Of a stretch of DNA of 44,899 bases, positions 3,589-35,273 are shown piece by piece. The number at the start of each line of letters is the position of its first letter. Positions within the stretch are counted from its first letter, which is position 1. Location of the stretch: sequence record KX534341.1; one strand, given 5' to 3'. The stretch comes from Escherichia phage Pride. The position numbers were made by a program, and so were the translations under genes. A model generated the notes under the pieces. The model was not told the DNA's origin and made no database searches. It saw only the letters and a list, made by a program, of their open reading frames with translations.

Positions 3589-4089
3589 ATGTATGGCGAC
3601 CCGCAAACCTTTGTCGATTATGCCGCTGCGCGAGGCGTTGAAGTCACGCTGGGCGATGCAACGCGACACCTTACCATCGTTAATGACTTTCTTAACGGCA
3701 TCAACTGGATCGGCGAACAGGCGGACCAGACAGGGATAGACGCATGGCCCCGCGTCAACTACCCGTCAGACGGTAAGCCGGTGCTAAACACGCTTACTGA
3801 AGATTTGGCAGTAGTTCCCGCTGGGCAGATTGTAGACTTCGCATCAATCCCCGTTGCCGTTGAGCAAGCTGTTTACAGGCTGGCGTTGTTGGTGGCGGAC
3901 GAGATCGATATTTCTCCGGTCGGCGATGGTAAAGAGACTATCCGCGAAACGGTCGGCCCGATCACGATGGAATACGACCCGGCGTCGATTGGTAGCGGGG
4001 TGTCGTTTCCGTGGTGGGATGGCTTGTTAGGGCACTGGGTTGATTCTGGCGGCAACGCCGCAGGCAATTTCGATGTATTCCGGGGGTGA
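3589..4089 (+). CDS. Hypothetical structural protein (head-tail connector/adaptor candidate)
   Basis: ORF with AGGAG RBS and ATG 3589 (the table start 3547 lies inside the terminator hairpin); position in the connector region. Confidence 0.5.
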   Translation: MYGDPQTFVDYAAARGVEVTLGDATRHLTIVNDFLNGINWIGEQADQTGIDAWPRVNYPSDGKPVLNTLTEDLAVVPAGQIVDFASIPVAVEQAVYRLALLVADEIDISPVGDGKETIRETVGPITMEYDPASIGSGVSFPWWDGLLGHWVDSGGNAAGNFDVFRG

Positions 4090-29858: not shown

Positions 29859-31281
29859 TGCTTAAGTCCTCGTCAGTAGCTTCCGACCACGCAGGGCGCG
29901 GGTCGTCGATTGGTGCTAACACCGGTTTTGCCGGTGCGCGCGTGATTTTATCACACAGCTTCGCCCACACTTTCGGTTTTTCGTCCTTCAGTACCTTCTC
30001 GGCATCCGTAGGGCTGAGCAATGTTTCTTTGTACATCACATCGCGCTTGATCCGGGCCTTCGTGAAGATTTCAATCACTTCGCTTTCGTCTGCCCACTTG
30101 CGAATCCCTTCCTTACCGGCAACCATCTTGAGGCCCAGCGATTCGCCATCGCCCGCCATAACCGCTTTGAATACCGCGGACTCGATAGCCTTGATGTGCT
30201 GGCGCATTGCGTCAAGACCTTCATATGCCTTGCGCAGTTCCGCGGCGGTCATAGCGCCTGTGGCCGCTTCTTTCTTGCCACGCTTCGCACGTCGTGCCGC
30301 TTTGCGGGCTTCGCGGGCCATATTGCGGTCGTGATTGGCGCATTCTTCCTCTGTCGCAATACTTACGTCGTCGCCCAGGTCTTCGTCTGTTGCCGTTGGT
30401 GGGGTCATCGTGTCGATTGCAGCCTTAGCGCGGGCGCTACACTGATCCGCAAATCTGCACCACTGACACGCATCAACGCTCGGTCGGAAGTCGGCGCGGG
30501 TGAGTCCTTTCTTACCGCGGGCGTACGCTTCCAGGGCGGCGATAGCACGCTTGGACGCAAACTTCGCGAATATCTCCAGCGCTTCTACCGAAATATCCCA
30601 CTCCGACGCCCCGCCGCAATACGGCTGGAAGATAACCAGGCGAACGGTCGTAATGTCGTACATAGTTTGCAGCTTGCGTAGCAGGCCGAGCGCATACAGC
30701 ATAAGCTGTTTGTTCTCTTTCGCCTCGACCTTATGGCGTCCGGTCTTCAGGTCGCCAACAATCAGCATGTACGTGCCGTCGGTCTTCTTCATGACCATAA
30801 CCATATCGGCAGTACCGAAGGTTTTAATCACCTCGCCGTCAATCTCGTAGCCTTTGTGCAGGACGCGTGTCAGATCCGCGCGCATCTCAAGCTGGACAAA
30901 CTCTGCCACTTCGAGGAGCGGTCGCCAGTGGTCGATGTACGCGTCGCACTGTTTCACCATATCGTCGTTGACCAGTACGCCGCCTTTCGGTGCTTTCGGG
31001 TGTGCCTTTACTGGCCCCTTTCCTTCGTTCTCGACGTAACACCCTTTATACGTCTTTGCGGTTATCAGCTTTTCACCGGCGATAATGCGGTTTAGCACGA
31101 CTTCAGATACGGTGTGCATACTCGTACCGTTAATCGCGGCTTGCCCGGATTCGTTTGGGATATCTTTTTCTACCACCAGAGCGGCAGGGCAACCCATCCA
31201 TTTTTTAGCACCGGACGGCCCGAGTAATGAGTGTTCGGTATTGCTACCGGATTGCGTCTTACGTTTTGGTTTAATCGCCAT
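29851..31281 (-). CDS. PD-(D/E)XK-family exonuclease (RecB/RecE-like)
   Basis: GDLKTG..K and QLMLYALGL motifs typical of RecB-type nuclease cores; Cys cluster near C-terminus; paired with SSB-like gene. Confidence 0.6.
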   Translation of the reverse strand: MAIKPKRKTQSGSNTEHSLLGPSGAKKWMGCPAALVVEKDIPNESGQAAINGTSMHTVSEVVLNRIIAGEKLITAKTYKGCYVENEGKGPVKAHPKAPKGGVLVNDDMVKQCDAYIDHWRPLLEVAEFVQLEMRADLTRVLHKGYEIDGEVIKTFGTADMVMVMKKTDGTYMLIVGDLKTGRHKVEAKENKQLMLYALGLLRKLQTMYDITTVRLVIFQPYCGGASEWDISVEALEIFAKFASKRAIAALEAYARGKKGLTRADFRPSVDACQWCRFADQCSARAKAAIDTMTPPTATDEDLGDDVSIATEEECANHDRNMAREARKAARRAKRGKKEAATGAMTAAELRKAYEGLDAMRQHIKAIESAVFKAVMAGDGESLGLKMVAGKEGIRKWADESEVIEIFTKARIKRDVMYKETLLSPTDAEKVLKDEKPKVWAKLCDKITRAPAKPVLAPIDDPRPAWSEATDEDLSNE

Positions 31282-31460
31282 TATTCCACCCGTGTAAACT
31301 GGACAATTACATATTTCACATTAGCCAGGCCCGCTTTTTCGACTCGGCGCTTAACTTCATTTTGCGCGTCCACAAAGCAATTGCTTGCGTTGGTGTTTTC
31401 AACAATAAAAGAAGTGTGATCGTTTAATTCGTGGCAAGTTGCCATGACGAAGAATTTCAT
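31281..31460 (-). CDS. Hypothetical protein
   Basis: ORF, translationally coupled on both sides (TAATG overlaps). Confidence 0.45.
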   Translation of the reverse strand: MKFFVMATCHELNDHTSFIVENTNASNCFVDAQNEVKRRVEKAGLANVKYVIVQFTRVE

Positions 31461-31711
31461 TATTTTGTCTCCCAGCGGTCGATTGTTTTTGCTTCGGATG
31501 CAACTGCGAAGCGAACATATTCCAGATTTGAATCCGCCCAAATATAAAAGTCGGGATTAATAAAGGTGGTGCGCTTAATTTGCGCGGGGGTGTTGCGGCG
31601 TTTGTCTATTACGGCAACGCGTGACTGAAAGCTGCCGATGCGTTCGAATAGCCAATAGTACGGGCGCTGGTCGCGGGAATCCACCGCCTCGATTAGCGTG
31701 AATCGTGCCAT
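31460..31711 (-). CDS. Hypothetical protein
   Basis: ORF in operon context. Confidence 0.5.
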   Translation of the reverse strand: MARFTLIEAVDSRDQRPYYWLFERIGSFQSRVAVIDKRRNTPAQIKRTTFINPDFYIWADSNLEYVRFAVASEAKTIDRWETK

Positions 31712-31759
31712 TGTCTCGTCCTCTAAAAATAGGCCCGCAGATTAGCGGGCCGGATAATA

Positions 31760-32266
31760 TTAATCTTCCAGTTCGAAATAAGTTTCGACGATTTCTTTTA
31801 GCTCTTTGTGGAAGTCTTCGACGTCGTCATCTTCCAGCTTAGCGATTGATTTGATTTCGAACGCGTCCAGCAGATCATCAAATTCGTCGTTCGCGTCGTC
31901 GTCATCACCGCCCGCGATAATCGCGGCATACTGTTTGATCTCGTCGCGCATCTCCGCCAGCGGATCGGCATCTTTCTTGCCTTTGCCCTTCGCCGGTGCT
32001 TTTTTAGACTTAGCCGGTTTTGCGTCTTCGGCGTCTTCGTCGTCATCTTCGACTACTTCTTTTTTAGCCTTACCTTTCGCCGGGGCTTTTTTAGATTTAG
32101 CCGGTTTTTCGTCTTCGTCGTCATCTTCGACAACTTCTTTTTTGGCCTTAGACGGCTTCTTGTCTTCCTGCTTACCAACGGCAGCGCCAACGGTTTCATA
32201 ATGCTTAGCGATGACTTCCAGTGCTACTACGCCGCGAGTGATCAGGTTTACGATTTGCTCAAACAT
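31760..32266 (-). CDS. Hypothetical protein with lysine/alanine/proline-rich and acidic tandem repeats (histone-H1-like tail); first gene of leftward early operon
   Basis: ATG 32266 with GGAGA RBS; 29-aa protein repeat KPAKSKKAPAKGKAKKEVVEDDDED from an ~87-bp DNA tandem repeat (about 31985..32160); acidic C-terminus. Confidence 0.6.
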   Translation of the reverse strand: MFEQIVNLITRGVVALEVIAKHYETVGAAVGKQEDKKPSKAKKEVVEDDDEDEKPAKSKKAPAKGKAKKEVVEDDDEDAEDAKPAKSKKAPAKGKGKKDADPLAEMRDEIKQYAAIIAGGDDDDANDEFDDLLDAFEIKSIAKLEDDDVEDFHKELKEIVETYFELED

Positions 32267-32462
32267 GGTATATCTCCGATTGGTTAAGTTTAGGTGTCGG
32301 CAGTTAACTTCGTCGGTGGCCTTAACATATTGCCAGGTTACGCGTTCTCCCGTTCGGGTAGTGGACCTGGTTATATAATCACGGTTGGGAATCCTGACAC
32401 TTCGATCCGGCCCCTGCGTTGCCCCTCTCCAGTTTGCGTCCTGCATCCTGTCGACGGAGTGA

Positions 32463-32492
32463 ATGATAGATTGGTTGCAGGATGGGTGTCAA
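32463..32492 (-). promoter_or_regulatory. Predicted leftward early promoter (TTGACA-N18-TATCAT) with GCAACCAAT motif in spacer
   Basis: -35 at 32487..32492 and -10 at 32463..32468 on minus strand; upstream of minus operon beginning at 32266. Confidence 0.5.
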
Positions 32493-32503
32493 CAACTAAT
32501 TTC

Positions 32504-32537
32504 AAAAAAAAAGCGCCGAGGCAAAATGCGACGGCGC
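32504..32537 (-). terminator. Intrinsic terminator on minus strand (gcgccg-loop-cggcgc followed by U9)
   Basis: 6-bp GC stem with 13-nt loop and A9 run on plus strand (T-run on minus). Confidence 0.55.
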
Positions 32538-32561
32538 TAACCAATAAGAGACAATGAGACG
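32504..32561 (-). ncRNA. Candidate small RNA (~55-60 nt) transcribed leftward from a TTGAAA-N16-TAATAA promoter and ended by the 32504..32537 terminator
   Basis: Promoter elements on minus strand at 32591..32596 (-35) and 32569..32574 (-10); no ORF; terminator immediately downstream. Confidence 0.2.
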
Positions 32562-32608
32562 GGAATTATTATTACACGCGTGCGCGCCCGTTTCAATATC
32601 CAAAGGAT

Positions 32609-32637
32609 TTGACACCATGCAGTTTTAGGTGTAGTTT
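32609..32637 (+). promoter_or_regulatory. Predicted rightward promoter (perfect -35 TTGACA, weak -10 TAGTTT) upstream of HTH gene
   Basis: TTGACA at 32609..32614; weak -10 suggests activator dependence. Confidence 0.35.
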
Positions 32638-32668
32638 CGTTGGTCATTAACCAACAGGAGACTGAATT

Positions 32669-32998
32669 ATGAATATCAAAGAAGCAATTGAAGTGTTATC
32701 TAATGCAATCCGCGGCGAAGCGGGTAAATCCTGGTATTACACAAATGCGGTGGATACTCTGTTATTTGAAGTGTCCAGATTATCGCGTGCTGAGAAGGAG
32801 CTTACCGCGAAGCTGGAATTGCTCAACGGCACGGCAGCAAGCAAGCTGCAAAAACACAATGAAGAAATGGAAGAATACAAAAAACAGGTTATCCGTCTAC
32901 GTGAGGAAGGTAAATCCTGGGCGATGATTGCCGAGTTGACCGGAATTAATCAGAGCACAGTGCGCTCCTGGGTACGCAATAATAAAACTTCTAAGTAA
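32669..32998 (+). CDS. Helix-turn-helix DNA-binding protein (putative transcriptional regulator)
   Basis: CAGGAG RBS; C-terminal HTH-like segment (SWAMIAELTGINQSTVRSWV). Confidence 0.6.
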   Translation: MNIKEAIEVLSNAIRGEAGKSWYYTNAVDTLLFEVSRLSRAEKELTAKLELLNGTAASKLQKHNEEMEEYKKQVIRLREEGKSWAMIAELTGINQSTVRSWVRNNKTSK

Positions 32999-33008
32999 GG
33001 CCACGGCA

Positions 33009-35273
33009 ATGAGCTTAATTAAATTCGCTGTAACAAGACCCGCTAAAAAAGGCGAAAAAGCCAGGGCGGAAAACTTCCAGATGACGACCGATGAATTTTT
33101 CGAATTTATCAAAGATGCGAAAGAGATATCGTCGGTGCATATCAACAAGACGGAAGATAAAGCCGAGTATGCGCGCCGCAAGCGTAAGGCCGATGGCATC
33201 GTAGCGTATACCAGTGACGGCTTACGCCGCAAGACCAGTGCGGTGGACCGCTCGATCCTGTTCTTCGATATTGACCGTACCGACACCCGCACCCTACGCC
33301 GCTGCCGTAAGGCTTTCATCGACGCGGGGCTGGAGCACGTATTTCACACCACAACCGGCGACCGCCACCCGCTGAAAGGCGGCACGCGTTGCGCTCGTTT
33401 CCTGGTGCTCACCGACAAGCCTGTACCGGCTGAAGACCTGGGCCGCGTCCAGTACGCACTATTACACCAACTGGGCCTGTCAGATGTGGACTTCGATGAT
33501 TGTACGAAAGACACAAACCGCCTGATGTACCTGCCACACCAGCAGTCTGTTATTAAGTGCCACTACGGCAAGCGTGCCCGCGTCCGTCGTCTGCTTCGCC
33601 TGGCGGATAAGTTGGGCGTGGAGAAGGAGGAAGTACGCCGCGAGCTTACCCAGGGCGACGACGCAGTGGCAGACGGCATTCTGGACTGGTGCTTCCAGGC
33701 AGGATTCGAGGAGTTATCTTCCGGTCGCGGTTATGAAGTGCCGTGCCCGAACGAACATCTGCACAGCGGCGAAGGGTCGACGGCTATCATGGTCAAGGAT
33801 GGCGAGATCCGTTTCAAGTGTATGCACACCGGCAACGAGTGTTGCTCGGAACTGAACAGACACCAGCACCTGGCGCTACGTCTTATCGGGATCCCGGACC
33901 ACCTGAACGTCGAGCCGCACAACATGTCACGTAAGCAAATCGCCGCCATCCTTCCGGGACTGGACGATGAGGAAGTGGAATCGTGCTATGAACATATCGT
34001 TGATGCGGTCGGAGACGGCGACGAGTACGGCGTGTGTACTGATGCAGACCTGGACAACGAGCCGGTCGCACTGTTCAGTAAGCACGACCCGATCATCGAA
34101 GGCCTGGTCAACTTCAAATCGACCTGGTATCTCGCCGGTGAGTCGAACATTGGCAAGTCGTTCTACGTGCTGGGCCAGATGGCGTCAGTATCTGCCGGTA
34201 TTCCGTTCGGCGGTGCGAAGGTCGTCCAGTCTCATTGCTTCTATTTCGATGCGGAAGGTGGTGAGGCCTCCAACCAGCGTAAAGAAGCACTGCAGATCAA
34301 ATATGAGCACGACCTGGACAAGCTGCACATTATCGATCTGCAATCACGCGGCTGGGATATCACCAGCAAATCCGGCTTGCGTGAAGTTATCAGCTTCATC
34401 AACCGCACCGCTAACGGCGAGCCGGTTGGCCTGGTGGCGTTCGACTCACTCAACCAGACTGTTGCGCTGCGGTCCGCCGATGCAAAACCGTTCGACGAGA
34501 ATAACGCCAGCGATATGGGTGAAGTGGTCAAAGCGCTGAAGGCCATTGCGGAAAATACAGGCGGCAGTGCGGGCGTCATCCACCACCCGGCGAAGGGTGC
34601 AAACGGCAGCAGATCTCCCCGTGGGTCCGGCGCGCTGCATGGCGCTGTCGATTCTGCGTTCTTCCTGGAACAGCCGGACGACAACCAGCCAGGTCAACTC
34701 AACCTGTATCACGAAAAATCCCGTAACGGCATCAAGCAAGCGCCGCGCGGCTTCGTCCTGCTCAAGTGCAAGGTTAAGGTGGATCTCCGCAAGTCCGAGG
34801 CGTTCGAAGCCCACCAGTCCACCAGCACCGGGCCGGACTTCGGTGACGTCGTTGCCGGTTGGGACGTCAAGCCGATTGCCTCCACGCCACGCGACGAGAC
34901 TCTTTACCTCGTACCGGTCGCCCTGGCACCGTTCGCCATTGAGCAGGCAAAGGCCGCTGGCAAGGCCGCAGTTAAGGAAGAGAACGCCGCAGGACCGCGC
35001 AACGAAAAAGAGAAAGTGCTTTATGCAGCGCTGGAAAAACTGATGGAAGATAACCCGGACCATACCGGATTCAGCAAATCGGCAATTGTCCGCCAGGCTG
35101 GGCTTGCGAAAGGTGGCACATCGACGAAGGCAATTGACGATATGGTCGAGCGCGGCGTGCTCGGTTTTTATACCGATCCGCACACCGGGGCCATCTATGG
35201 GTCGTCGAATATCGTCATCAAAACGAAGATACCCATCACGCTTTCGGCGACCGATGACGACTTAAAAGATTAA
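33009..35273 (+). CDS. Bifunctional DNA primase / replicative helicase (primase-polymerase-like N-terminus, zinc ribbon, RecA/DnaB-like ATPase)
   Basis: ILFFDIDRTD acidic motif; Cys/His zinc cluster (CPNEHLH...CMHTGNEC); Walker A GESNIGKS; VIHHPAKG. Confidence 0.75.
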   Translation: MSLIKFAVTRPAKKGEKARAENFQMTTDEFFEFIKDAKEISSVHINKTEDKAEYARRKRKADGIVAYTSDGLRRKTSAVDRSILFFDIDRTDTRTLRRCRKAFIDAGLEHVFHTTTGDRHPLKGGTRCARFLVLTDKPVPAEDLGRVQYALLHQLGLSDVDFDDCTKDTNRLMYLPHQQSVIKCHYGKRARVRRLLRLADKLGVEKEEVRRELTQGDDAVADGILDWCFQAGFEELSSGRGYEVPCPNEHLHSGEGSTAIMVKDGEIRFKCMHTGNECCSELNRHQHLALRLIGIPDHLNVEPHNMSRKQIAAILPGLDDEEVESCYEHIVDAVGDGDEYGVCTDADLDNEPVALFSKHDPIIEGLVNFKSTWYLAGESNIGKSFYVLGQMASVSAGIPFGGAKVVQSHCFYFDAEGGEASNQRKEALQIKYEHDLDKLHIIDLQSRGWDITSKSGLREVISFINRTANGEPVGLVAFDSLNQTVALRSADAKPFDENNASDMGEVVKALKAIAENTGGSAGVIHHPAKGANGSRSPRGSGALHGAVDSAFFLEQPDDNQPGQLNLYHEKSRNGIKQAPRGFVLLKCKVKVDLRKSEAFEAHQSTSTGPDFGDVVAGWDVKPIASTPRDETLYLVPVALAPFAIEQAKAAGKAAVKEENAAGPRNEKEKVLYAALEKLMEDNPDHTGFSKSAIVRQAGLAKGGTSTKAIDDMVERGVLGFYTDPHTGAIYGSSNIVIKTKIPITLSATDDDLKD

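Follow-up and report, generated by a model that had tools for sequence, protein, structure and literature searches.

The gap of about 400 bp (32267-32668) that separates the two divergent early operons of a virulent Escherichia coli phage contains a promoter followed by an intrinsic terminator, which together are predicted to yield a leftward small RNA of about 55 nt whose unpaired 5′ part is complementary to the start regions of the first gene on either side, gp20 and gp21. These features exist, form a unique combination, are conserved with compensatory changes, and are complementary to both sites. From them we infer transcription, pairing in the cell, a repressive effect and any role for Hfq. 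On the comparative evidence set out below, the small RNA is likely to be transcribed; that it acts as a countertranscript-like antisense repressor of its two non-overlapping neighbors is a tentative proposal, to which we give slightly less than even weight. The window analyzed throughout is the 44,899-nucleotide sequence of Escherichia phage Pride (KX534341.1), and the coordinates of its features are collected in Table 1.

The early control region and its three promoters

The window belongs to a Dhillonvirus, and its control region is 100% identical to that of Escherichia phage Gluttony. The protein encoded by gp21 matches the Pfam families HTH_23 (E 7e-7) and Sigma70_r4_2 (E 8e-7), and the replisome genes are T7-like according to the record annotation (family A polymerase, gp2.5-like SSB, and helicase-primase). 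No tRNA or tmRNA was found by ARAGORN. With Rfam 15, no family, C4 included, reached the gathering score anywhere in the window, and a search of positions 32100-32800 at E values up to 10 returned chance-level matches only. Cumulative GC skew is lowest at 31-33 kb, which is also where gene orientation switches, so that this minimum is not independent evidence for a replication origin.

Table 1. Features of the early control region and adjoining genes (positions in the window)
Feature	Position	Strand	Description
Terminator 3′ of gp20	31751..31732	-	
gp20	31760..32266	-	First leftward gene; 168 aa, rich in lysine and acidic residues; phrog_3127
gp20 start region	32270..32288	-	CUUAACCAAUCGGAGAUAU; proposed left-hand target
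Leader RNA, about 160 nt	32296..32455	-	Begins at the PL transcription start
PL, leftward operon promoter	32463..32492	-	TTGACA-18-TATCAT; 11/12 match
Small-RNA intrinsic terminator	32504..32538	-	7-bp stem, internal loop, 3-bp stem, UUU loop, U9
Predicted small RNA, about 55 nt	32504..32561	-	Single-stranded 5′ part, terminator hairpin, U9
Candidate seed	32537..32553	-	UGUCUCUUAUUGGUUAG; in the unpaired 5′ part; complementary to both flanking SD regions
P3, small-RNA promoter	32568..32596	-	TTGAAA-17-TGtAATAAT, extended -10; 10/12 match with TG
PR, rightward operon promoter (gp21, then helicase-primase)	32609..32637	+	TTGACA-17-TAGTTT
5′ end of rightward mRNA	32639..32662	+	Inverted repeat GTTGGT-CATTA-ACCAAC, then SD AGGAGAC
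Proposed right-hand target	32647-32662	+	UUAACCAACAGGAGAC
gp21	32669..32998	+	First rightward gene; 109 aa; C-terminal helix-turn-helix
Helicase-primase gene	33009-35273	+	Begins 10 nt after gp21

Both operon promoters, the leftward PL and the rightward PR with its perfect -35 and weak -10, are present exactly where the initial annotation had placed them. PL is conserved among relatives, L017 included, and its spacer carries an invariant GCAACCAAT. PR (-35 at 32609-32614, 17-nt spacer, -10 at 32632-32637) does not appear in the list from our promoter scan because its -10 matches at only 3/6 positions. Despite this weak -10, both hexamer blocks are invariant in relatives; phage HK578 has TAGTAT at the -10 position, and its GenBank record annotates a promoter there.

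The third promoter, P3, had been proposed earlier as TTGAAA-N16-TAATAA. The promoter itself stands, but that register is off by one base, and we corrected it to an extended -10 form, with TTGAAA at 32596-32591, TG at 32576-32575 and AATAAT at 32573-32568. The 17-nt spacer is GC-rich, alternates purines with pyrimidines and carries the invariant, palindromic ACACGCGTGT. P3 is nearly invariant in 14 of 15 relatives, and the HK578 record lists it as a consensus promoter. P3 and PR fire in opposite directions, with their -35 hexamers 12 bp apart. Because the two promoters stand back to back and diverge, the P3 RNA never overlaps the PR transcript, and neither collision nor occlusion can occur; the transcriptional interference over the rightward promoter that had been suggested for this layout does not fit this geometry. 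At most, P3 and PR compete for polymerase binding.

A probable small-RNA gene conserved among Dhillonviruses

The predicted small RNA starts at about 32561/32560 and stops at about 32505. Its 5′ 24 nt are predicted by folding to be unpaired, and a second copy of GUCUC lies at 32560-32556 within it. The minus-strand terminator with its U9 tail is found at the place previously given for it and folds with a ΔG of -16.7 kcal/mol (z -3.05), a stability matched by none of 200 shuffled sequences. Its 7-bp lower stem is GC-rich (AGCGCCG/CGGCGCU) and is topped by a 2x2 internal loop; a simple scan misses the structure because it allows loops of 8 nt at maximum. The GenBank record of phage CS16 annotates a terminator at the homologous position. 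We rejected a bidirectional terminator, the plus-strand side having no T run, as well as a small peptide encoded in the RNA gene, since the sole minus-strand open reading frame (32618-32502) begins upstream of the P3 -35 and thus outside the transcript.

We searched both strands of the whole 44.9-kb window for units in which a promoter-like site (at least 10/12) is followed 35-130 nt later by a strict terminator. Three promoter-like sites at this threshold and 11 strict terminators are present, and P3 with its terminator is the sole promoter-then-terminator unit; none arose in 60 local shuffles. Lone promoter-like sites are not enriched in the region (2, against 1.8 ± 1.3 expected from shuffles). 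The combination of promoter and terminator, unlike the single sites, is not chance.

The control region was found in 154 GenBank phage records, 150 of which carry at least 80% of it. The RNA body and the terminator make up the most conserved 100 nt of the locus (pairwise identity 0.93-0.96), above the flanking coding sequence (0.65-0.88), and the gp21 protein is only 76-79% identical among the same phages. In L005/LM40P1, both partners of two terminator-stem pairs have changed with pairing preserved; the stem of L017 is a different one. The U tract, 9 nt in the window, measures 8-13 nt across all 19 Dhillonvirus variants, and UGUCUCUUAUUGGUUAG is invariant in 17 of the 19. The RNA gene has no homologue in 5,426 E. 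coli genomes, control regions like that of L017 were not found in GenBank phages, and the literature searched yielded neither a Dhillonvirus transcriptome nor a report on either core sequence. Taken with the uniqueness of the unit and the complementarity described below, the conservation and the compensatory stem changes speak for the putative short, self-contained, non-coding leftward transcript predicted in the initial annotation.

Complementarity to the flanking start regions and competing explanations

A blind repeat search recovered one 15-nt family with members in the RNA gene (32538-52), at the gp21 start (32648-62) and, inverted, at the gp20 start (32273-87). The repeat families that contain the seed are D3, I1 and I2, of which D3 and I1 also cover the gp21 start region; the arms of the inverted repeat I2 (32273-32286 and 32538-32551) are 86% complementary. 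The small RNA would pair at 16/17 positions with the gp20 site (ΔG -15.9, p 0.0065 against shuffled RNA) and at 15/16 with the gp21 site (ΔG -16.7, p 0.013). Among 1271 ATG contexts, the gp20 and gp21 sites rank 27 and 14, and AACCAA together with GGAGA[CT] occurs only at gp20 and gp21 among the 61 annotated genes. Ranked by duplex energy among the 61 real start regions, gp21 is 7th and gp20 10th, a modest signal because any RNA rich in pyrimidines will pair with purine-rich SD sequences. We therefore gave genome-wide duplex energy little weight as target evidence; it does not single out the neighbors against GU-rich decoys.

The complementarity varies across the genus. In HK578, which has a different gene at the gp21 position, pairing there reaches p 0.1 only, and in the L005/LM40P1 lineage pairing to gp20 is weak (p ~0.12). 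Across Dhillonviruses the gp21 start region keeps its hairpin part unchanged but varies in its SD part; the RNA stays invariant while this SD part of its proposed target drifts. The gp20 start region is conserved in phages with and without the leader element described in the next section. The likeness of the RNA gene to the gp21 start region (GAATTATTATTA versus GAATTATGAATA) extends into the P3 -10, which gives the RNA gene the appearance of a degenerate antisense duplicate of its putative target.

Divergent phages have a comparable arrangement with other sequences. The RNA of L017 differs in sequence, yet it pairs at 10/11 positions with its own gp20-like start region (p 0.017), and cross-combinations do not pair (p 0.16-0.46). 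In all nine more distant relatives, whose helicase-primase proteins are 43-49% identical, a minus-strand terminator lies 90-130 nt upstream of the helicase-primase start and is preceded by a promoter-like site, which is above the scan threshold in four and was read by eye in the five below it (L077-L081). In four of five lineages, the RNA body contains a sequence, peculiar to the lineage, that is complementary to the start region of the helicase-primase gene, with duplexes of -24 to -35 kcal/mol (p at most 0.002). This sequence covers the SD and AUG in L081, reaches into the SD from about position -20 relative to the start codon in L077-L080, and covers the SD in L076/L082, where the RNA also overlaps the helicase-primase SD in cis. 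VSiA and L083 have no such complementarity to the helicase-primase start region, and in the 43-49% relatives trans pairing to gp20-like or HTH start regions is not significant.

In the mechanism that we propose, host RNA polymerase would read 32596-32504 on the minus strand from the extended -10 promoter P3, and the strong intrinsic terminator would end the RNA just upstream of PL. The product would consist of an unpaired pyrimidine-rich 5′ part, a 3′ hairpin and a long U tail. Its segment UGUCUCUUAUUGGUUAG could pair with UUAACCAA(N2)GGAGA at the gp21 ribosome-binding site and with the same motif at gp20, the first leftward gene. As the RNA accumulates, such pairing would block ribosome entry and thereby damp or time expression of the early and replication genes.

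The main rival to this antisense reading holds that the TAACCAA/TTGGTTA segments are DNA operators, bound by the gp21 HTH protein or another repressor, or else iterons of an origin nearby, the short RNA being a by-product without function in trans; P3 and its terminator could then hold polymerase beside PR or insulate PL from upstream transcription. We consider this unlikely, although both models could hold at once, and several observations speak for it. AACCAA is half of a near-perfect DNA palindrome, GTTGGTCATTAACCAAC, at PR +1..+15, a classic operator position, so that the inverted repeat GTTGGT-CATTA-ACCAAC may be either an RNA hairpin or a DNA operator, and the small HTH protein is encoded directly beside the sites. 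AACCAA also lies between the -35 and -10 of PL, in an untranscribed spacer, where it is invariant and where L017, whose RNA lacks the motif, has two copies; the P3 spacer, too, is invariant and palindromic. Placement of AACCAA where RNA pairing cannot explain it fits a protein operator. Moreover, complementarity between non-overlapping sites amounts to a direct DNA repeat, which could equally reflect iterons or a relic of recombination, and relatives show direct DNA repeats 50-60 bp apart upstream of the replication gene. Operators leave unexplained, however, why the similarity runs over the SD, spanning 15 nt rather than 7, and why the second copy always falls inside the transcribed, unpaired part of the unit, the L081 copy extending over both SD and AUG. 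A palindromic partner exists at the PR site only, the other sites being lone half-sites, and a mere insulator would not require the RNA body to be conserved in sequence, although that body is the best-conserved part.

The remaining alternatives are less probable. The small RNA may be real and have its main targets among host mRNAs or other phage genes, as an Hfq-dependent RNA of host takeover like lambda PreS/LPR1, in which case the match to the neighboring start regions would be a by-product of duplicate origin. We regard this as improbable. The unpaired 5′ seed, the GC-rich terminator hairpin and the U tail of at least 8 nt do conform to the architecture of enterobacterial Hfq-bound small RNAs; the seed is invariant while the nearby gp21 SD varies, which suggests that something other than this SD constrains it; judged by energy, several other start regions of the phage are equally good or better partners; and lambda encodes an RNA of this kind (bioRxiv 10.1101/2024.10.31.621285). 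Under such a role, on the other hand, one would not expect the RNAs of four other lineages each to match, with a sequence of their own, the replication gene beside them. It is very improbable that P3 serves the leftward operon as a second promoter in tandem, upstream of PL, with the terminator as a regulated attenuator. By default P3 would then yield a short terminated RNA, like 6S RNA from lambda PR′, and a factor of phage or host would later permit read-through into PL-gp20 and the replication genes. P3 and the terminator do point the same way as PL and the leftward operon, and a second terminator follows gp20, so control of read-through could matter. PL itself, however, is an 11/12 match immediately downstream, which makes a second promoter gated by antitermination look redundant; no Q- or N-like protein was seen among the products of the neighboring genes; and both the conservation of the RNA body and its complementarity to the start regions would be left unexplained. 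There is, finally, only a slight chance that the unit marks a replication origin, with the short transcript priming or activating DNA synthesis beside the helicase-primase gene, as promoters do at the primary origin of phage T7. The T7-like replisome, the position of the skew minimum and the retention of a short leftward unit beside the helicase-primase gene across distant relatives would suit this idea, but that minimum falls where gene orientation changes, a hairpin plus U tract sets the RNA free instead of keeping it in a stable hybrid as a primer, a phage that encodes a primase has no need of such a primer, and neither an iteron array nor a DnaA box was seen.

A structured leader RNA, known systems and biological meaning

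The leftward transcript from PL would begin with a second RNA element. Its fold consists of a closing helix P1 (GUCGACAG/CUGCCGAC) around a GGA-loop hairpin and a three-way junction, with six helical segments in total and invariant junction nucleotides; G-U pairs occur in its helices P3, P1 and P5a. The leader model matches the window at 32289-32463 with 157 bits. Fifteen of the 40 pairs have changed on both sides, and the covariation score of 0.282 exceeds both that of shuffles (0.112; 0/500) and that obtained when partners were slid (at most 0.127). The leader is present in some Dhillonviruses and absent from others; it also occurs in unrelated siphophages (Tempevirinae, Sortsnevirus and unclassified phages) and is absent from bacterial genomes. 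Neither the window copy nor three divergent copies matched Rfam at E up to 5-10, and the leader has no expression platform, that is, neither a terminator nor an anti-SD helix. It is a structured RNA with good support, strong covariation and no family assigned to it.

Several other readings of the leader were rejected. It has no conserved reading frame: no frame is open in all members, and in some, such as PHB17 and JK16, stops fall in all three frames. An N-terminal extension of gp20 from the in-frame ATG at 32446 would turn the paired substitutions into radical R/W swaps. An RfaH ops-like GGCGGCAGGATG in some copies is not conserved, being absent in the window and in JK16, and a link to the gp20 terminator was dropped because that terminator is kept in phages with and without the leader. 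A search for the PL pattern in viral contigs gave mostly chance matches. Two features were missing from the initial annotation, namely this structured leader of the leftward transcript and the complementarity of the small RNA to both start regions.

The small RNA invites comparison with the countertranscript antisense RNAs that control plasmid replication genes, such as CopA of R1, RNAI/II of pT181 and Inc RNA of ColIb-P9. These are RNAs of about 55-90 nt with a constitutive promoter of their own and a terminator; they lie in the leader of the replication gene, from which they are read away, and limit synthesis of its product by pairing with its start region. The phage RNA is likewise short, has its own promoter and terminator, is read away from the replication operon, and is complementary to the start of that operon's first cistron, gp21, which precedes the helicase-primase gene; in L076/L082 it overlaps the helicase-primase SD as well. 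Unlike the plasmid RNAs, the window RNA (32561-32504), encoded upstream of PR, has no base in common with the PR transcript; pairing would rest on a separate, imperfect target copy of 15-16 nt, and the RNA may act on two divergent operons, in a virulent phage rather than a plasmid. The c4 RNA of P1/P7 and the CI/CB RNAs of P4/N15 are processed from the transcript of their own target and serve lysogenic immunity. They resemble the geometry at gp20, where the RNA is upstream of and co-oriented with the controlled operon and short blocks cover the ribosome-binding site; they differ in that the present RNA has its own promoter and terminator, occurs in a virulent phage and does not match Rfam C4. 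Lambda OOP and P22 sar, terminated transcripts of about 69-77 nt from constitutive promoters, are antisense repressors of cII and ant. They too are short terminated phage transcripts within a control region, but they overlap their targets with full complementarity, whereas the present RNA is wholly intergenic, with no annotated gene opposite and no overlap with a known transcript.

Other comparisons concern Hfq-associated and cis-acting RNAs. The long U tail after a 3′ hairpin serves as the Hfq proximal-face site in small RNAs, and from its sequence the window RNA is predicted to have such a tail, along with its own promoter and a Rho-independent terminator that would yield a discrete RNA within the 50-300 nt of Hfq-type small RNAs. 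HK022 put and the Bacillus EAR element are promoter-proximal cis-acting RNAs for processive antitermination, put comprising two hairpins of about 70 nt in total. Like these and like riboswitch aptamers, the leader forms a conserved fold of several helices at the 5′ end of an operon transcript, whatever gene follows; unlike put, it spans about 160 nt and comprises six helical segments with a three-way junction. Its location, at PL +1 with a terminator after gp20, would suit a put-like role; this terminator is kept equally where the leader is missing. Lambda PreS/LPR1 is reported to be an Hfq-associated base-pairing small RNA that aids lytic development and affects replication, regulating host genes and enhancing dnaN translation (bioRxiv 10.1101/2024.10.31.621285). 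Here, by contrast, the candidate targets are early genes of the phage itself and repression is the predicted outcome; the two RNAs have no sequence similarity.

Early control regions of virulent siphophages are mostly unannotated, and to our knowledge regulation by small RNAs, well documented in temperate phages and plasmids, has hardly been described in virulent siphophages. Taken together, the 400-bp region could hold two undescribed RNA devices, an antisense-duplicate small-RNA family acting on adjacent operons and a mobile leader fold of about 160 nt, though we regard this joint reading as somewhat doubtful. Its first part would be a small-RNA family in virulent Dhillonvirus- and Cornellvirus-like siphophages, each RNA consisting of a degenerate antisense duplicate of the neighboring replication operon's start region and acting on that operon without overlap; the Dhillonvirus member would gate both early operons. 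Its second part would be that the promoter-linked leader, always at the 5′ end of an early transcript, represents a new class of functional RNA, for instance a leader that binds a ligand or a protein, an RNA that processes itself or a decoy against defence systems. The leader matters independently of the small RNA, as it moves between unrelated phages, and natural phages with and without it allow comparison. If real, the small RNA would provide a simple and testable switch that times replication genes, and would do so in a genus in wide use in phage collections and therapy work, including BASEL phages and urinary and veterinary isolates. A design in which an antisense copy of a start site lies beside its target could easily be looked for in other phages.

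Promoters, terminator and conservation of the predicted small-RNA unit

Over positions 32000-33100 the window agrees at 100% identity with Escherichia phage Gluttony, a member of Dhillonvirus, a genus of virulent siphophages of the HK578 type; 174 GenBank phage records have matches there. The small-RNA unit and the promoters lie between two divergent gene blocks (see table). The leftward block runs from gp20 through small genes to a PD-(D/E)XK/DUF2800 exonuclease, a gp2.5-like SSB and a DNA polymerase; in the rightward block, gp21 (109 aa) is followed after 10 nt by the helicase-primase gene. Among relatives the gp20 protein is 138 to 180 aa long, and since a terminator-like hairpin stands directly 3' of its gene, most gp20 expression may come from a monocistronic early message. 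Similar proteins (M..KF.ALLERFVVA) lead the leftward operon in most of the relatives with a 43-49% identical helicase-primase, some of which have a short ORF upstream. Because only a C-terminal helix-turn-helix (HTH_23, E 7e-7) is detectable in gp21, the GenBank names of its homologues (transposase, resolvase, "DNA recombination nuclease inhibitor gamma") look like annotation carry-over. The cumulative GC skew is lowest at the control region (31000-33000) and highest near 18-19 kb, where gene blocks converge; the minimum fits an origin at the control region, but coincides with the switch in gene orientation.

Features of the divergent control region and related loci
Feature	Position	Strand	Description
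PL, leftward-operon promoter	32492..32463	-	TTGACA-18-TATCAT; 11/12 consensus match (scan)
P3, small-RNA promoter	32596..32568	-	TTGAAA-17-AATAAT; extended -10, TG one base upstream of -10
PR, rightward-operon promoter	32609..32637	+	TTGACA-17-TAGTTT; -10 below scan strength
Small-RNA terminator	32538..32504	-	7-bp stem, 2x2 internal loop, 3-bp stem, UUU loop, U9
Repeat site in RNA gene	32538-52		TAACCAATAAGAGAC (repeat finder)
Repeat site, gp21 start region	32648-62		TAACCAACAGGAGAC (repeat finder)
Repeat site, gp20 start region	32273-87	inverted orientation	(repeat finder)
TTGGTYA/TRACCAA motif	32639-32655 (+), 32469-32477, 32279-32287, 32538-32546
TTTAGGTGT	32289-97, 32624-32
Leader RNA	32296-32455	-	~160 nt, PL transcript 5' end (covariation, covariance model); also in Tempevirinae, Sortsnevirus, unclassified phages
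gp21	32669-32998	+	only C-terminal HTH domain detectable
gp20	31760-32266	-	lysine- and acid-rich repeat protein
Terminator-like hairpin after gp20	31732-31751	-	GGCCCGC-N6-GCGGGCC, interrupted T run; conserved
Terminator/promoter unit, relatives	L034 2740-2863; L076-L083 about 3870-3960 (L083 1439-1559)

The initial annotation had described a strong leftward promoter, a rightward promoter with a perfect -35 and a weak -10, and a minus-strand terminator with a U9 tail, all of which were recovered. The PR blocks are invariant in relatives, HK578 having TAGTAT at the -10 position, and the terminator folds at -16.7 kcal/mol (z -3.05), with none of 200 shuffles as good. The third promoter is likewise present, in a register one base from the TAATAA and 16-nt spacer first proposed. 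Since P3 and PR diverge, the suggested transcriptional interference over PR is unsupported. Lone promoter-like hexamers occurred at chance frequency in our scan; a promoter matching at least 10/12 positions with a strict terminator 35-130 nt on was found once on both strands of the 44.9 kb, at the P3 unit, and in 0 of 60 shuffles. The observed layout is real and is not a product of chance. In GenBank, the HK578 and CS16 entries already annotate all three promoters as well as the terminator, by pattern matching only, and neither proposes the RNA gene. The P3 spacer (32574-32590) is an invariant alternating purine/pyrimidine run, GCGCGCACGCGTGT, containing the 10-bp palindrome ACACGCGTGT; L017, the most divergent Dhillonvirus-like contig, likewise has an alternating tract (GCGCGCGTATA). 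The spacer may be prone to form Z-DNA or be sensitive to supercoiling, or it may serve as a binding site.

The 226-bp control region occurs in 154 phage records. Across 16 aligned Dhillonvirus loci, pairwise identity averaged 0.93-0.96 over 32489-32593 (terminator, RNA body and P3 -10) and 0.65-0.88 in coding sequence on both flanks; gp21 protein identity among the same phages is only 76-79%. Of 19 distinct Dhillonvirus arrangements, 17 share the same RNA body, GUCUCAUUGUCUCUUAUUGGUUAG. In L005/LM40P1, both partners differ in two terminator stem pairs, one G-C being replaced by U-A and another by C-G, and an upper-stem A-U has become G-U; L017 has a different 8-bp stem followed by U13. Judged from these alignments, the paired changes prove only that the hairpin is important, and the conserved unpaired part shows that the RNA sequence itself matters. 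The short non-coding leftward RNA of the initial annotation, predicted from sequence, is thus supported by comparative evidence in the form of conservation, stem changes and the uniqueness of the unit. Our search of the literature found no Dhillonvirus transcriptome; we consider the predicted transcript probably real.

Complementarity to translation start regions

A repeat finder run blind on 32250-32690 returned a single family of three 15-nt sites, located in the RNA gene and in the gp20 and gp21 start regions. The RNA segment UGUCUCUUAUUGGUUAG could pair at 16 of 17 positions with CUUAACCAAUCGGAGAUA, which precedes gp20, and at 15 of 16 with UUAACCAACAGGAGAC, which precedes gp21; both target sites include the Shine-Dalgarno (SD) sequence. 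Duplexes were more stable than those of shuffled RNA (p 0.0065 for gp20, 0.013 for gp21), and the two sites ranked 27 and 14, respectively, among the 1271 ATG contexts of the window. SD sequences pair with any CU-rich RNA. By duplex energy among the 61 annotated Gluttony start regions, gp21 ranked only 7 and gp20 only 10; AACCAA and GGAGA[CT] combined were confined to these two of the 61 genes. In L017 the RNA differs (…GGACUCCUGAA…), and pairs with its own gp20-like start region UUUAGGAGUAC at 10 of 11 positions (p 0.017); when partners were swapped between L017 and the window, the signal was gone (p 0.16-0.46). Because the similarity to the gp21 start extends into the P3 -10 (GAATTATTATTA vs GAATTATGAATA; repeat search), the RNA gene looks like a decayed duplicate of its own target, read backwards.

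We also analyzed Cornellvirus VSiA and eight IMG/VR contigs whose helicase-primases are 43-49% identical. Each of the nine carries a terminator, on the minus strand only, at 90-130 nt before the helicase-primase start, preceded by promoter-like sites that are mostly weaker matches; instead of lying upstream of PR, the unit is placed between an HTH gene and the helicase-primase gene. For four of the five lineages its body is complementary to the helicase-primase start region, through a different sequence each time: AGCATGGAA (start codon) and GAGAAC (SD) in L081, ACCGCTCA(A/G)GG in L079/L080, AACCGCTCAA in L077/L078, and TACCAG(A/G)AG in L076/L082, whose RNA overlaps the SD in cis as well. These four gave duplex energies of -24 to -35 kcal/mol (p <= 0.002); the same test on the nine relatives found no comparable complementarity in VSiA and L083. 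This recurrence, with sequence changed and logic kept, is the strongest argument for an antisense function on the replication operon. The hairpins of L017, VSiA and L083 have a common upper stem, UCA-(C)UU(U)-UGA, and the L017 and VSiA RNAs both begin with CGUAUUGC, which hints at common descent.

A serious rival is that the repeated sites are DNA operators or iterons. Complementarity between sites that do not overlap is, in formal terms, equivalent to a direct DNA repeat, and the AACCAA core is also found in places that RNA pairing cannot account for: in the PL spacer, which is not transcribed (there it is invariant, with two copies in L017), and at the PR start, where it makes up half of the palindrome TTGGTCAtTAACCAA. 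Such a distribution fits an operator of the neighbouring HTH protein. The antisense and operator or iteron readings may both hold. Other rivals are a host-directed sRNA, an attenuated tandem promoter and origin priming. In the gp21 start region, the SD part drifts among Dhillonviruses with the RNA unchanged, and HK578 has another gene there. Given this drift, the energy ranks among the 61 Gluttony start regions and the operator-like AACCAA sites, we propose the antisense mechanism tentatively. Five copies of the motif TTGGTYA/TRACCAA lie within 400 bp; two of them together make a near-perfect palindrome at the PR start, and the one in the PL spacer is invariant. These copies could be operator sites for gp21. 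TTTAGGTGT occurs twice in the control region.

A structured leader RNA on the leftward transcript

About 150 extra nt separate PL from the gp20 ribosome-binding site in 10 of 15 Dhillonvirus loci, and the other five lack them. Parts of this leader segment recur in unrelated Tempevirinae (PHB17, JK16, KMI8), Sortsnevirus (IME279, sortkaff) and BUCT618, in further IMG/VR and metagenome contigs and in one phage-like contig in a MAG; it was absent from the bacterial genomes searched. The distinct cores number 33. All of the approximately 20 copies inspected in detail are intergenic and on the coding strand, starting 5-15 nt past a sigma-70 -10 hexamer; 20-45 nt separate their end from the next gene, and no terminator follows the element. 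With the covariance model, each genome gave a single copy (157 bits for the window, at 32289-32463). In its alignment, 86.7% of cells pair, 15 of 40 pairs are changed on both sides, and stem P5 has up to five pair types per position; the covariation score was 0.282, against 0.112 for shuffles (0/500) and at most 0.127 for slid partners. The fold is strand-specific, as its G-U pairs indicate, and comprises a closing helix that includes the transcript 5' end, a GGA-loop hairpin and a three-way junction with invariant strands GGAGAGG, GAUCGWAGUG, CACU, AGAACGC and ACCGACGAAG.

We found no conserved reading frame in the element and no match in Rfam, tRNA models or the literature. PMC10690425 reports 10,006 unnamed candidates, and the leader RNA may be one of them. 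An ATG at 32446 opens a stop-free frame through the leader into gp20 (32446-32266, minus strand), entered as a 228-aa ORF in a mechanical ORF list; with no leader frame conserved, this ORF is very likely an artefact. Some GenBank records place a "hypothetical protein" over the element. An ordinary riboswitch or antiterminator is not indicated, because the downstream genes differ from phage to phage, no expression platform was found in the element, and the terminator after gp20 is retained whether or not the element is present. In its patchy, mobile distribution at the heads of early operons, the element resembles accessory genes for host takeover or anti-defence.

The leader is the more novel object of the two RNAs. 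The small RNA would likely act as a short antisense regulator of the replication operon, an already known type; what is unusual in it is the non-overlapping layout derived from a target duplicate and its possible reach over both divergent operons.
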